NCBI GenBank assembly: GCA_963769935.1
Contig: CAVYNY010000013.1
Coordinates: forward strand, 512,001-576,000
Reading direction: 5' to 3'
Origin: an uncultured delta proteobacterium
GTDB taxonomy: Bacteria > Desulfobacterota > Desulfobacteria > Desulfobacterales > JAFDCJ01
Length of the DNA: 64,000 bases
Position 1 is the stretch's first letter; the number at the start of each line of letters is the position of its first letter. Both the position numbers and the translations under genes were made by a program. The notes under the pieces are model-generated. The model was not told where the DNA came from. It searched no databases and saw only the letters and a program-made list of their open reading frames with translations. Shown one piece after another: positions 47,389-61,743 of this stretch.

Positions 47389-47447
47389 GGGTCGCGTTTT
47401 GATTTGTGATTATAGAGGCCCTTTAATCACTGATTAAGATCTGACCC
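47389..47447. repeat. ~60-bp GGGTC...GACCC palindromic element
   Basis: GGGTCGCGTTTTGATTTGTGATTA ... TAATCACTGATTAAGATCTGACCC; second copy at 60345-60406. Confidence 0.75.
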
Positions 47448-51759: not shown

Positions 51760-53659
51760 CTTATATTTCGTATATCGAAAATATTTTAATTTTAATTCAA
51801 GCTATATTTATCAAAAATTCAGTTACGTACCTTCAAACAACCACCATTGATCATGTAAATTTTTATAAGCCGAACTCGGTACCTCAACTAGCTCGCAGAC
51901 TTTTATATGCATATCGCTAAGCCCTTGCACATCTACCTGGATTGCAACTTTATTTCTGAGGATTACTGACAGGTGAATATCTCGACAAAAATAGCGAATA
52001 TTATTCCAGGTCGGCTTTTTGGTATTCATTTTCTGGGGCAGTATCGGAAGTTTTTCTATCTGCTGCTTTGTCATATTCAATCGTATATTTCTTTCAATAA
52101 GAGATACGATCATCAGTGCAAAAAAATAAAGCAGCAATACGGCTTCAATCCGCCTTTCCTTTTTAAGAAAGACCGGGGCAACATCTAATATTGACTTTTT
52201 GGTATACATCCTTTTTTCAAGATAGGCTTGACGTTTGTACATTCTGAGCACTTCGCCGGCATCCAACAAGTGATTATTGGTGATAAGAGGGAACAGCCCG
52301 TCTGTTTTTGATTCGTCTATAACGGCTTGTTCATTTATCTTCCATTCAAGTCCATAATTAAATGACCATTTATTTTCATAAATTGGATCGCCTGATTGCC
52401 GCTTGGTTGATGGGATTCTCTTGCAAATCTGCTTGCGACCTTTTGTGATTTTTACATCGATTAACCCTTGTACTGGCTTACAGATTGTATTAACCGCTTT
52501 GCTAATCTGTTTTTGTGTTTTGAAGTGATACGCGTTAAGCTTTGGTATCAGTTCTTCCATCGCCTGTTGGGCTTTTTCTATCTGCTTGCGCCTTCTATTT
52601 TTTTCATCCTGATCCTTAGAACTGGAATGCACCCATATAACTCGATAGCCTTTTTTGTTTTTGCCAGCCTCATATGTTCTATACTTATTGGCTTGTTGTT
52701 TTTTGCGAGAATGTTGGATTTCAAAAGCATCTTCCCATTCAACCTCATTGGTTTTAATATATTGCATAAAGCTTGTTGATTCTTTATGAAATTTTGGGAT
52801 GATGGTAATGAAGTAGCCGTTATTTTCATCAATGTATGCCAGATTTTTGTTGCTGCATAATTTACAGTCGGCGATGTAAATAAAGTCTTCTTTGCGTATC
52901 AAGGCACGCAGTTGATTCCAGTTTGGAATATGAGTTGTGTCATCATCTTGGTTGCCATTATAAGCCTTGTAGCTGAGCGGGACATGACCGTCAGCAGTGA
53001 TGTTCAGACCAAAAACAATCTGCTTGCAGTCCGGACGAAAATCCTTATTATGCCCATGCTTGAGTTGAACTGCATCCGGGTCAGCGGTTGCGTATTGGCC
53101 TTTGAATGTAACCGTGGTGCTGTCATTATGGATCTCATCTGTCAGCAGTTTGTGCAGTTTAATGGCATTGCATGATACCTCGGTCATTAACGAGTGCCGA
53201 TCTGCCTGGAAAAGTGCGCAAAGAGACCTTCCTAAGCGATCATCGTTAAACTTGTCGGCATTTACGGATTCATTTGTCAGTCCGTCGGCATATCTTGCCA
53301 GCCACTCTTGAACTTTGTATAGTGGCTTGTTGTCACAGATAATATTAGCGGTAATAATGCACAGACTTTCCGCATGCTCGGCCAGGCAACTGTTAGAGGC
53401 TGGAACATATTTTTTAAATAAGTTATACAGATCAAGCGAGCTCATATAATGCTTGACCATTGGTAAAACATCGACCTGTTTGAACCGCGTCTCAAATTGC
53501 TTCATAAACGCCTCCTATTTGGCTGATATAAGGCGTTATAAAACAATTAAAGGGCAATGTCTAGATTTTTTTATTTGTTGTAATATAAGCAAGTTAGGGT
53601 GATTATTGGCGATAACTGCATAAATTCTGAAATTTAATTTTACAGGCGCGAAATGTAGG
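51760..53659 (-). mobile_element. IS1634-family insertion sequence (1900 bp)
   Basis: Ends CTTATATTTCG / CGAAATGTAGG (9/11 inverted match); flanked by TTCTAA at 51754-51759 and 53660-53665; AT-rich. Confidence 0.85.
51823..53505 (-). CDS. IS1634-family DDE transposase
   Basis: NDDRLGR.L, HNDSTT, GHNKD.RPD.KQ, YIADCK, FPLITN, Y..Q..LEKR...KK. Confidence 0.88.
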   Translation of the reverse strand: MKQFETRFKQVDVLPMVKHYMSSLDLYNLFKKYVPASNSCLAEHAESLCIITANIICDNKPLYKVQEWLARYADGLTNESVNADKFNDDRLGRSLCALFQADRHSLMTEVSCNAIKLHKLLTDEIHNDSTTVTFKGQYATADPDAVQLKHGHNKDFRPDCKQIVFGLNITADGHVPLSYKAYNGNQDDDTTHIPNWNQLRALIRKEDFIYIADCKLCSNKNLAYIDENNGYFITIIPKFHKESTSFMQYIKTNEVEWEDAFEIQHSRKKQQANKYRTYEAGKNKKGYRVIWVHSSSKDQDEKNRRRKQIEKAQQAMEELIPKLNAYHFKTQKQISKAVNTICKPVQGLIDVKITKGRKQICKRIPSTKRQSGDPIYENKWSFNYGLEWKINEQAVIDESKTDGLFPLITNNHLLDAGEVLRMYKRQAYLEKRMYTKKSILDVAPVFLKKERRIEAVLLLYFFALMIVSLIERNIRLNMTKQQIEKLPILPQKMNTKKPTWNNIRYFCRDIHLSVILRNKVAIQVDVQGLSDMHIKVCELVEVPSSAYKNLHDQWWLFEGT

Positions 53660-53756
53660 TTCTAAGGCCTAAAATCGCCCCCGCATTTAAGCTCATGTCT
53701 TATTTGGCGCCGATCTAACGTGGTCCGACCCAGGTTTGGACAGGTTTGGGGGATCG

Positions 53757-55687: not shown

Positions 55688-56277
55688 GGGACGAGCCAAG
55701 TTTACAGGCTATAAATATTGAGAATGAGCTTACTTATACCCCTGAAAACAGGGCTATATTGAGCTTTTTGGAGCAAAAAACAGCGATATAGAAATGGCAA
55801 GAGCGAAAAGGCATTACATAATCGACCTTAATATGGTGAGGGCGGGAGTCGTAAAACATCCAAGCGAGTGGTCATATTCAGGCTACAATGAAATTCAGCA
55901 ACCAAAACGAAAAAAGATTCTGATCAACTACGAAAAGTTAAAAGAACTCCTTGGATTTGATTCTTACGAGCATGTGAAAACGGCTCACAAGCAATGGGTG
56001 GAAAGCTGCCTTTCTGATGGTGATAATTTCCGTGACGGTAAATGGACAGAGAGCATCGCTGTTGGGAGTGAATCTTTTATTCAAAATGTAAAAGTGCTGA
56101 TGGGTGCCATGGCATTGGGACGAAAGGTCCTTGAAACGGGAGAATCGTTTCAACTTAAAGAAGTGCAATATCCCTATATAGCCCATTTTGGGGCGAAAAA
56201 GAGCGAAATAGGCGACCAAAACACCTATGTTTGGGATCAAAACTTTGAAAATGCAACGACGTAGCTTGGCCCGTCCC
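55688..56277 (+). mobile_element. Non-autonomous RAYT-type element with terminal inverted repeats; internally deleted transposase ORF 55794-56264
   Basis: GGGACGAGCCAAG / CTTGGCCCGTCCC (12/13); MARAKRHYI joined directly to IDLNMVRAGVVKHPSEW, with no HUH motif. Confidence 0.7.
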
Positions 56278-57638: not shown

Positions 57639-57910
57639 CCGAGGACAAAGAATGATGGGGACATCCCCATTTTAGGGGATTGGAAGTTCGAGTAAAAATA
57701 AGGGGCAGACCACGAATTCCCCTATTCCTGATACTCTTTTTGTTTCCTTGGCCTGCCTGGTGCACCAGGTATTACTTGTTGCCCAAACGGTCGGACAATT
57801 TTAAAATTTTAAAACCTGTCTGCGAGATTCTGCGTGTGCTTGGCATGGGCGATTTTCGCCAATTCGCAAGCCTTGCTCAAACCTTCGCGGCGACGAGATC
57901 CGTCATGGGG

Positions 57911-58636
57911 TCGCCCATTAAAGGGCGTGTCAAGAAAAAAAATACCTCCCCACAGAAAAAACATGCTGTTTTTTCTTTACACTTAATCGGTTGTCGACTC
58001 GGTCTTAAGCTGCTGATTATTTTGTTTCGCGCCCGTTATTTCCGTTTATGGTCCGCGTGGTCTTTGACCCGCATCAGTCACCCATCTGGTTCAAGGCGAT
58101 TGTGTTATTAGCTCAAATAACACAGGCCCCTTCCGCATTGGCGGACCAGAAAATCATCGGTGCCATGCCGGTTCCAATTGTATCATTGCAGATCATGTGG
58201 TTATGAACCAACCCCTTTGCGGCTGCCGGCATAGGCGAATCAAAATAATAAACAGGTTATGGGTGCAGCAAGTTCCAATCAGACCAGTTGGATTAATACC
58301 AAACCCCAGAGCGGTTCTATGCTGCACCCAAAAGCATTATTGGAACAACTTGTCCTTATCAAAGGCTACCTGATCGCGCATGATGTAATAAGTTGCTTTT
58401 GTCAGTTTGTTGGCTAAGGCTTTGGTAGCAAGGACCCGTTCGCTTTTGGCCAATTTACGTTGAAAAAATTTCTGGGCTTTCGGGCAGCATCGAATGGCAT
58501 GGTTTGCCGCTTCAACATAGGCCCAGGCCAGATAACGGTTTCCGTTTTTCTTATTGTTTTCGCCTTTTTTCTTGCCATTGGAAATTTTTTTACTTTCAAC
58601 GCAGCGGCAATAGGAAGAGTAGTTGCCAACTTTGGG
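57911..58636 (-). mobile_element. IS110-family (IS1111-like) remnant: transposase C-terminus (58636-58337) plus ~420-bp 3' non-coding end
   Basis: Hand translation PKVGNYSSYCRCVESKKISNGKKKGENNKKNGNRYLAWAYVEAA...KALANKL.KA.YYIMRD; outward TTGACA near the end; end ...AATGGG joined to CGACCCC. Confidence 0.8.
58060..58330 (-). ncRNA. Putative bridge/seekRNA of the IS110 remnant
   Basis: Two tandem stem, internal-loop, hairpin units (58260-58330; 58162-58236) and a segment ATGGGTGAC matching the IS end ATGGGCGAC. Confidence 0.55.
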
Positions 58637-58648
58637 GGGTCAGGGGGG

Positions 58649-59015
58649 GGGTCGGGGGCCACGGCAAGTAATTGACATTGCATAAAAAAAGGCCTAAAAA
58701 AGGCCCAGAATCAGTCTTAATCGACCGATTTTGATCAAATACTGGCCATTTAAAAGATTCGACGAAAAAAGGCTTTGGTTTTAGGGCAAAATGCAGAAAG
58801 ATAATTTCTGATGATGATACCTTTGGACTTCAGGAAGTGATCAAGTTGTTTGGAGAAATTTACTATTTGGATTCCGGAAACACATTCCTATAACATTTAA
58901 AACCACAACCGTTAATCGGGCAGTTTTTGCACAAAAATCGGCCGATTAAGATTGAAAAACCGGCGCTTTTAGGCGTCTATTATAGATTTTCCAATAAGTT
59001 ACTGTGGCCCGACCC
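58649..59015 (+). mobile_element. MITE-like RAYT derivative with ~100-bp imperfect terminal inverted repeats
   Basis: GGGTC..GGGCCAC...TCTTAATCG.CCGATTTT at both ends in inverted orientation; interior reads GFRAKCRKIISDDDTFGLQE...NTFL*, similar to the C-terminus of ORF 55794-56264. Confidence 0.7.
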
Positions 59016-59043
59016 TCTGGGAGCGTTGACCCTCTGGGAGCGT

Positions 59044-59356
59044 TTCTCGCCGGCGCGATGTTTCTGGCGCATGACCGGATCGATCTGATGGGCCCACTGA
59101 CGGTACAAATGACAAAACTGGCTGTATTGATAGCCCTGGGGAAATTGCTCTTTATATTCCTGCCACAGCCGCATCAGAGTAACACTTTTGTGGCGCAGCT
59201 GTTGCTGAATATAGGACCAGTCGGCAACAGCGCGCTGGTCCGCCGGCGCAGCGGGCAGCTGGGGATACAACCGTTGCTCCAGCTGGTTATCGTCGATATC
59301 AACCGGCAGGGGCCAGCTCAGGGCGGCCTGTTTAAAACGAAACAGATACTCGGCTA
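59044..59356 (-). pseudogene. IS21-family IstA transposase internal fragment
   Basis: LSWPLP, LE..LY, DW..I, VTL..LWQEY, GYQYSQFC, MRQ.H.AGEK. Confidence 0.85.
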
Positions 59357-59425
59357 GGAAAGGGTCTTGGACCCTCGAAAGCTCAACTGCCTGCACGGGA
59401 TCCGCAACGTTTAGGCTTATATCAC

Positions 59426-59869
59426 ATGCACGAAATAAGAACTGAAATTGAAATAGAATCAACGCCGGAAAGGGTCTGGTCAATTCTCGTTGACTTTGCC
59501 GCCCATACCCAGTGGAATCCATTTTTACGTTCAATCGAGGGAGTGGCAAAGAAGCGTGAGAAACTAAAGGTTTTCATTCAACCGGTAGGTGGTAAGGGAA
59601 TGACATTTCGTCCCACCGTGCTTGTTGCGATACCCAATCAGGAGTTGCGATGGCTTGGGCGGTTCCTTTTGCCAGGTCTATTTGATGGTGAACATTACTT
59701 CCAAATTGCACCCATTTCATCTGATCGAGTGCGCTTTATCCAAGGAGAAAAGTTCAGGGGAATCTTGATCGCGCTTTTCAAGTCGAGTCTCGATAGTGGA
59801 ACCAAGGCCGGTTTCGTGGCAATGAATCAGTCTCTAAAAGATCGGGCTGAAGGTGATGCTATCCCCTAA
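59426..59869 (+). CDS. SRPBCC (polyketide cyclase-like) domain protein, probable gene cassette
   Basis: IEIE..PERVW, WNPF, ELRWLG, LFDGEH.F, MNQ.LK.RAE; preceded by GTTTAGGC, stop lies within CCCTAAC. Confidence 0.85.
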   Translation: MHEIRTEIEIESTPERVWSILVDFAAHTQWNPFLRSIEGVAKKREKLKVFIQPVGGKGMTFRPTVLVAIPNQELRWLGRFLLPGLFDGEHYFQIAPISSDRVRFIQGEKFRGILIALFKSSLDSGTKAGFVAMNQSLKDRAEGDAIP

Positions 59870-61167: not shown

Positions 61168-61269
61168 GAACGCTGATTGTCTAGTCGGCGCCCTGGTCTT
61201 TCTGATCTGATATTTGTTATTTTTGTTATGCGCGCTGCTTTCCCCCCGAGATATTGAACCCTGCCTCCG

Positions 61270-61620
61270 CAATCACTACCACCTATTAATGCGAACCCGA
61301 AGGGCTAACCTGTCCAAAAGCATGCAATGGCTGGGCGCAACTTACACCAAACGATTCAACACACGGCATTTTCGAAGCGGGCATCTTTTTCAGGGGCGCT
61401 TTAATAACATGCTGGTGCAAAATGATGCCTATTTGCTGGAGCTGTCCTATTATATTCATCGAAATCTTGTCCGGGCCGGGATGGTGAAAAGGTTATCAAG
61501 CTACAGACGGAGCAGCTATCGTGCCTATGCCTATGATGACCAAAGAGTAAAATGGCTCAATACCGAGCTGCTGTTGTCGCAATTTTTAAATGTGACAGAC
61601 AGCCACGGAGCGGACGCAAT
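61270..61620 (+). pseudogene. RAYT/IS200-like Y1 transposase fragment
   Basis: NHYHLL (HUH), GHLFQGRF, YIHRN.VRAG, SSY; both ends truncated. Confidence 0.75.
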
Positions 61621-61743
61621 ACCGGGGCCTTTTTTATATACCATGCAGAAGGTACAGCGATTGTGGGAGCAGCCGACCATTGCCTGGATCAACAAAAAGT
61701 CCGCCTCGCCGGGAGGCCGGTATATGGGACCTGTGTAGCGCAT
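61620..61743 (-). pseudogene. N-terminal fragment of a radical SAM protein
   Basis: [30 protein letters not shown] (CxxxCxxC), then runs into the RAYT fragment. Confidence 0.7.

Follow-up and report, generated by a model that had tools for sequence, protein, structure and literature searches.

The window, a 64,000-nucleotide stretch of DNA, carries the right end of a 5′-truncated IS1111-type insertion sequence of the ISGsu4-like group. On the minus strand, a remnant recombinase gene is followed by a non-coding end with several guide-like loops; the features discussed below are the following.

53720..53731, plus strand: empty repeat from the family that unit 1 reads (word search in the genome)
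57907..57913, minus strand: target-derived right half of the target, CGACCCC (junction counts; empty sites)
57914..57925, minus strand: right end of the element, subterminal inverted repeat plus 3-nt extension (common to own-genome copies and relatives)
57928..57933, minus strand: outward-facing −35 hexamer TTGACA near the right end (TTGAC[ACT] there in 90 of 94 right ends)
58066..58241, minus strand: bridge module, outer stem 58241-58235/58072-58066 around unit 2 and the donor loop (RNAalifold; covariation)
58077..58158 (span also given as 58158-58066), minus strand: predicted multibranch donor-binding loop (matches the element ends); right-donor guide at ~58158-58152 (complement of the left end), left-donor guide GATGGG plus TGA at 58086-58077
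58163..58234, minus strand: unit 2, second target-like loop within the bridge module, stem 58234-58226/58171-58163; left guide 58197-58191, then TGCA (no donor match); 10-nt insert
58260..58330, minus strand: unit 1, predicted free-standing target-binding hairpin (structure covariation; flank covariation; handshake counts), closing stem 58330-58320/58270-58260; top-strand guide 58311-58302, bottom-strand guide 58288-58282, donor-matching handshake TGAT 58281-58278
58337..58633, minus strand: C-terminal remnant of an IS110-family (IS1111-type) recombinase, residues ~242-338 (Pfam Transposase_20; NF033542 partial)
58634..59030, no strand assigned: foreign piece between inverted TGGCCCGACCC-like repeats, in place of the 5′ part of the gene (genome comparison)
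G000 C9:360975, C11:461706 and C12:3511: AGATGCGACCCC at the stops of Y1 + DnaA-C-like genes

The remnant frame encodes the last ~96 residues of an IS110-family recombinase and ends at a stop codon at 58339-58337, with both units directly after it. The earlier note was right that this copy has lost its N-terminal DEDD domain: only the C-terminal part is left, about residues 242-337 of a 338-aa relative. Intact relatives contain both DEDD_Tnp_IS110 and Transposase_20 and pass NF033542 (183 > 140). The window copy is unable to move by itself. Its protein is 77% identical to those of three intact copies in the same genome, and a search of the rest of the assembly did not find the missing 5′ part of the gene. 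The foreign piece that stands in its place (~400 bp) is bounded by inverted repeats that are copies of the element's own target-type repeat, and similar pieces are found at six other places in the genome, several adjoining Y1 hits. Other mobile genes cluster in the window (51823-53505, 58980-59549, 55794-56264 and 61214-61738), namely an IS1634 transposase (NF033559), an IS21 istA fragment (NF033546, under the cut-off) and two remnants of Y1 type; a unit-1-type repeat comes after the stop at 56264.

The boundaries of the element were defined from its relatives, since the window retains no left end and the left flank of this copy is not readable from it. The left end begins TGA and the right end finishes GGG. 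The left junction was T in 71 of 71 loci, the right junction read TGA in 57, CGA in 13 and CGG in one, and the empty sites for the own-genome copy on contig C15 carry C. Given the invariant T on the left and the C at the empty sites, we assign this base to the target and see no genuine core duplication. A TGA repeated at either junction was excluded as a core, since on the right the target contributes its own C or TGT. The subterminal inverted repeats share a perfect CCCTTTA and span 10-11 nt with a single indel, which is less than the 11-13 nt given as typical of IS1111 elements in the available text of PMC11187229. They are flanked by a 7-nt left and a 3-nt right extension, with the crossover set by the T of the 71 left junctions and by the empty sites, in line with the 7+3 end rule in that text. 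Right non-coding ends measure about 420-870 nt versus about 200-300 nt for left ends. The TTGACA hexamer may be part of a circle-junction promoter.

The predicted structures of the non-coding end are supported by covariation. For the unit 1 hairpin, an alignment of 76 sequences gave 18 pairs with 93.1% of positions paired and two-sided changes at 14 of the 18, a result reached by 0 of 500 shuffles. The bridge module (~180 nt; 30 sequences) gave 36 pairs, 96.5% paired, 16 of them with two-sided changes, again with 0 of 500 shuffles. A covariance model of the hairpin gave 76 bits for unit 1, which was in the training set, and 18.6 bits for the inner part of unit 2; across the whole 8-Mb genome it found seven matches, all behind IS110 genes. 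The Rfam search of the window at the gathering threshold returned 0 matches. In both units the top-strand guide lies 5′ of the bottom-strand guide, which is the order of the IS1111 group. The earlier note had described two IS110/IS1111 guide loops on the minus strand, and their places, segments and assignment hold after folding and covariance modelling; it had overlooked the donor-binding loop at 58158-58066 and the actual right end at 57914.

The donor-binding loop was recognized by its match to the element ends, GATGGG-TGA being the right end followed by the beginning of the left end. Its right-donor guide covaries with the left-end base (20 of 20 when this is A, loci not deduplicated) through a short pairing of 4-6 nt, and its third base tracks the target core in 14 of 15 distant loci. 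We rejected unit 2 as the donor loop of an ordinary two-loop RNA because this distinct donor loop is present downstream of it and because the ends of the element find no match in unit 2. The RNA predicted from these sequences probably consists of three loops, namely unit 1, unit 2 and a donor loop matching the joined element ends. Contigs of four RNA libraries, from four studies, cover 57907-58633, with strand and RNA ends not shown and DNA carry-over possible. One of them spans all three loops with 6 differences, and coverage stops at the right end; contigs also continue the gene in frame past 58633, and no circle junction was seen in them.

We evaluated the conservation of this layout in 156 relatives, 60 further loci from phylum and order searches (43/401 and 105/401 genomes matched), 20 targeted stretches, 15 plasmid regions at 46-53% identity, one ISEc11 copy and extra phylum loci. 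Guides were parsed with a profile and a regular expression, with two manual fixes, and the relatives are not phylogenetically independent. Among 161 loci, 131 had a gene end and a module, and every one of these had free hairpins, one in 67 and two in 64. All 131 thus show two or three target-like loops instead of exactly one target and one donor loop, and none (0/131) relies on unit 2 alone. A free hairpin was also present in 49 of 49 later loci (45 with one, four with two; partly the same elements as the 131) and in all 18 distant loci (46-55% identity) that could be parsed. From the distant parse, L253 was dropped for its tandemly duplicated right end, and relatives at 36% identity or lower (L256, L261-L272) were left out; these, at 29-36%, seem on inspection by eye to have two similar loops after the gene. 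In a tree of 92 proteins one hairpin is ancestral, and two were gained and lost repeatedly in one subclade (12 parsimony changes); the lineage of the window has one. Hairpin and module profiles revealed no module on G002 (two stretches), G005, G647 (two), G001 (one) or G463 (one), and the viral contigs searched gave no match.

Several relatives are informative individually. L095, L096, L100, L101 and L149 have transposases at least 97% identical (single linkage) and differ in guide sequence and hairpin number; compared at the sequence level, their guides are re-aimed fast. L043-L048 carry a degenerate first hairpin (14 bits) ahead of an intact one, which is a decaying guide. In L243 the free hairpin (2499-2576) starts before the gene is over, within its final codons. 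L007, L008, L009 and L071, all from one assembly, showed neither target loop; L007-L009 have in common a deletion that removes the two target loops together with a part of the donor loop, at insertion sites that differ, which points to movement by an RNA provided in trans or to an error of assembly.

To establish which loop tracks the insertion site, the guides were compared with the flanks of 86 loci with a left flank, which yielded 70 unique combinations of guide set and flank. The best free hairpin matched the left flank better than unit 2 in 45 events, equally well in 16 and worse in nine; held-out events (n = 14) split 7/5/2, and one event per 90% cluster (41 clusters) gave about 29/8/4. 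Scoring the better of two hairpins gives them an advantage, but unit 2 is still beaten, 36 to 17, when only the first hairpin is counted. Perfect 5/5 matches in the 70 events belonged to the first hairpin only in 26, the second only in five and unit 2 only in four; four were shared and 31 events had none. Where the loops of single-hairpin elements differ (positions −6 to −2), the flank base equals that of unit 1 in 38 of 57 cases and that of unit 2 in 12. In 13 deep lineages, loop 1 matched the left flank at 3.08 of 4 positions versus 1.44 after shuffling and the right flank (n = 12) at 5.0 of 6 versus 3.14 (both p < 1e-4). For loop 2, the match to the left flank was 3.0 of 4 versus 1.39 (p < 1e-4), with no significant match on the right (3.25 versus 2.87, p = 0.12). 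The close clade repeats this pattern, with right-side p values of 0.004 for unit 1 and 0.11 for unit 2, and there too the left guide of unit 2 covaries with the flanks (p about 0.01-0.02). The proposal that unit 1 spells the target is borne out for both halves, and in unit 2 covariation is found for the left half only. We consider the three-loop layout, and unit 1 as the loop that chooses the site, to be well supported by these comparisons and very likely correct.

The earlier note had further claimed that unit 2 aims at a second subfamily of repeats. Instead, in the 13 distant lineages unit 2 tracks the left half of the site that unit 1 reads. Its predicted site, TGATC[TC]GACCCC, is not enriched in the genome (4 copies versus 2.5 expected). 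The four relatives that share its guide and have a left flank (L036, L037, L062 and L066) sit at AGGCC, TAGTC, CGGCC and TGGCC, with 0 of 4 at TGATC, so that its use in the window lineage is judged on four events. Perfect matches to unit 2 only numbered 5 of 42 in the combined sets versus 3.0 by chance (p = 0.12). Of all 1024 5-mers, AGATT, the commonest unit-2 guide, is the best generalist for the sites in use. The flank of L028 agrees with unit 2 and cannot be explained by the hairpin of this locus even with wobble.

In contrast to the site predicted from unit 2, the family matching the window's guide, TGGTCCGACCC, occurs 14 times in the genome versus 3.0 expected. The enriched words carry C before GA (TGGTCCGACCCC, 7 versus 0.68 expected; TGGCCCGACCCC, 4 versus 1.08). 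Of the four window repeats quoted as resembling the predicted targets, all exist, but only that at 53720 belongs to this family: at 57702-57713 the GA core is missing its A, and among the five proximal bases the repeats at 47436 and 14523 have one and two mismatches to unit 2, respectively. The two 16-mer targets that had been predicted have 0 copies in the genome, even as 13-mers.

Some of the target repeats are the ends of Y1/HTH (RAYT-like) genes. AGATGCGACCCC (11 copies versus 0.48 expected) overlaps the stop codon of a gene with Y1 and DnaA-C-like HTH parts in 3 of 3 cases; this gene scores under the cut-off of NF047646 (62 < 80). The suggestion that the targets are RAYT-associated probably holds for at least some of them. 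Y1 hits were found at 10 of 85 relative loci versus ~0.9 expected, and five of 18 AGATG-type and three of 11 unit-1-type repeats lie within 2.5 kb of Y1 (background 1.9%); for three other repeat families the count was 0 of 4 each, and distant relatives have other targets. AGCTACGACCC is present in genome G000 in 30 copies versus 1.4 expected, away from Y1 genes. The left flank of L001 (G000 C15, ~146100-146640) contains what we take to be a sequence like the end of a group II intron. It abuts the same repeat at this flank and at four empty sites, and may represent a second element using the target repeat of L001. L284 and L285 are presumably toxin-antitoxin-like bacterial gene pairs with integron-cassette-like ends, adjoining Y1 genes.

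The idea of dual targeting holds for relatives with two copies of unit 1 and is not supported for unit 2 as the second guide. The three near-identical intact copies in the same genome carry hairpins with the guides AGCTT (A) and AGATG (B). L002 and L003 sit after AGCTT, where hairpin A matches 5/5 and the other 3/5, and L001, at ~146647-148625 of G000 C15, sits after AGATG, where hairpin B matches 5/5 versus 3/5; unit 2 scores 4/5 at each of these sites. Empty sites of both families are present in this genome. In another assembly, four copies are split alike (L014 and L053 versus L015 and L016, the latter two through wobble). Of the 20 events in which the first hairpin fails, six are matched perfectly by the second (2.4 expected, p = 0.013; unconditional strict p = 0.085), a modest signal, and of the 28 in which the second fails, 14 are matched perfectly by the first (2.7 expected). 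Two-site use, like the layout, the ends and the covariation of guides with flanks, is apparent from sequence comparison, and we regard it as likely that the duplicated hairpins are used for two sites. Split target-binding (TBL) and donor-binding (DBL) loops function in engineered systems, according to the available text of 10.1101/2025.05.14.653916, which makes it plausible that free hairpins share one donor loop.

The two target-like loops also differ in the bases that follow the left guide. In 14 of 16 distant loci (exceptions, L274 and L279), the four bases after the left guide of loop 1 coincide with the four that open the left end. TGAG/TGAG and TGAA/TGAA are among the pairs seen, and there are two compensatory states, one in L241 and one in L242, L278 and L281, which are the only two independent changes. 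These bases remain TGA where the target core is TGT (7 of 15 distant loci). In loop 2 they match the donor in one of 16. The close clade shows TGAT in 186 of 191 free hairpins versus one of 129 unit-2 loops. The post-guide bases of unit 2 match the target core only in part, TGT with TGT in three of the seven TGT loci, which speaks against its excision role.

Tracking of the left half only and the lack of a donor handshake suggest that unit 1 directs insertion and that unit 2 would help copy-out; from these patterns we consider the insertion role of unit 1 likely and the excision role of unit 2 an even bet. Handshakes good for insertion disfavour excision (PMC13626964, available text). In IS621, excision is reported to proceed without a target match (10.64898/2026.08.31.748434, available text), which weakens the need for an excision guide. 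In the model that we propose, a rare excision would produce a circle, and its junction promoter would drive the recombinase and the RNA. With one recombinase dimer on the free hairpin and one on the donor loop, the circle would be inserted between TGG(T/C)C and (C/T)GACCCC, and TGAT after the left guide would pair with the incoming donor end and drive the reaction forward. Since this handshake would oppose excision, the handshake-less unit 2 would hold the left flank while the circle forms. Doubling and re-aiming of the free hairpin in one subclade would allow one element to read two repeat families. We infer the processing of the RNA, the strand order and the excision role from the comparisons above, and hold the whole model, with unit 1 as insertion guide, unit 2 as copy-out aid and a donor loop, to be reasonably probable.

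Other explanations for unit 2 were weighed against the same data. It could be a helper in insertion or direct strand transfer, gripping the old or the new left flank while the free hairpin picks the site. This accounts for the same left-only covariation, fits almost as well as copy-out, and agrees with the different steps served by the TBL-only RNA and the full bridge RNA of CazIS110-1 in the available text of 10.1101/2025.10.25.684509; by itself, however, it does not account for the consistent loss of the donor handshake (1/129), and we consider it unlikely. That units 1 and 2 are equivalent insertion guides for two repeat subfamilies is more doubtful still. The guides in the window do differ (TGGTC versus TGATC), four of the 70 events and one of the 14 match only unit 2 perfectly, and one RNA-library contig end has a right flank like the right guide of unit 2, with no left flank read. 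Yet these five matches are close to the chance number given above, four of them are wobble-compatible with the free hairpin, the right guide of unit 2 does not follow targets, and neither the predicted site, nor the relatives with the same guide, nor any locus dependent on unit 2 alone supports a second subfamily. A vestigial or purely structural loop, similar through descent or gene conversion, would fit the insert, the missing donor handshake and the weak right guide, but is very improbable because the left guide of unit 2 tracks unrelated targets across 46-55% protein identity, and because its right guide and scaffold do not follow unit 1, when conversion would copy both halves.

These elements share several features with the IS1111 seekRNA elements ISEc11, ISPa11 and ISKpn4 as presented in the available text of PMC11187229: a non-coding stretch after the gene, subterminal inverted repeats extended by about 7 nt on the left and 3 nt on the right, a top-strand guide 5′ of the bottom-strand guide and, for unit 1 (~75 nt), the size of a short seekRNA. 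They differ in having two to three target-reading loops, where that text gives one. The ISEc11 copy L283 has one guide pair by eye, and its protein is ~26% identical over the C-terminal half. IS621 and ISCro4, whose protein is homologous to that of the element (E 2e-7 to 8WT6), likewise have a target loop, a donor loop and handshake bases, and a multi-branched donor loop is noted for IS1111 orthologues (PMC11208160 and PMC13626964, available text). Unlike them, as far as they are described there, the RNA lies at the right end, the guide order is reversed, the bottom-strand guide bears the handshake, the main target loop stands apart as a hairpin of its own, and there is an additional left-half loop. 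The nearest named element found was the ISGsu4 family (annotation of L242; 46% identity), with the same three-loop layout and ends, a different target and one free hairpin; our literature search found no description of its RNA.

Bridge RNAs of IS110 elements are described with one target and one donor loop in the available text of PMC11208160 and PMC12045711, and likewise of PMC13604230 and 10.64898/2026.10.21.760802; that of 10.64898/2026.08.14.744561 mentions a single locus for which several donor loops are predicted and whose tandem non-coding repeats are nearly identical. A literature search, made without figures (PMC11208160 Fig. 6d, Extended Data 10c) and supplements, which may show such RNAs, found no description of several target loops in one element, nor of RAYT targets with such a layout. 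A target loop that functions apart from the donor loop has parallels in the engineered split bridge RNA (10.1101/2025.05.14.653916) and in CazIS110-1, for which copy-out and TBL-only RNAs are reported (10.1101/2025.10.25.684509). In the available text, those loops are engineered, or processed from a single TBL, whereas here the free loop is separately encoded and aimed, and sometimes duplicated. By eye, the units also resemble TIGR arrays, with repeated two-guide units and CC(A/G)...UG borders for a Nop-domain protein. The available text of PMC12045711 describes TIGR arrays as long, regular and serving Tas nucleases or binders, and the IS110 RNA as a single two-stem unit; the elements here, with one or two hairpins behind a full IS110 recombinase, are not TIGR-Tas systems.

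A broader reading, to which we give somewhat less than even weight, is that a widespread IS1111 subgroup may encode separate guides for each direction and in this way solve the trade-off between insertion and excision, the insertion guide being expanded and quickly re-aimed as a small natural array that follows the diversifying ends of HUH-transposase elements. If true, this would be a multiplexed bridge system, midway between a bridge RNA and a TIGR array. The structures of bridge recombinases leave open how elements depart efficiently when handshakes tuned for insertion hinder excision, and a natural free guide with a handshake, together with a left-half loop without one, makes this question directly testable. 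The duplicated, separately aimed hairpins provide a natural template for multiplexed targeting, and covariation pipelines that assume a single target loop will mis-assign guides in this IS1111 group.
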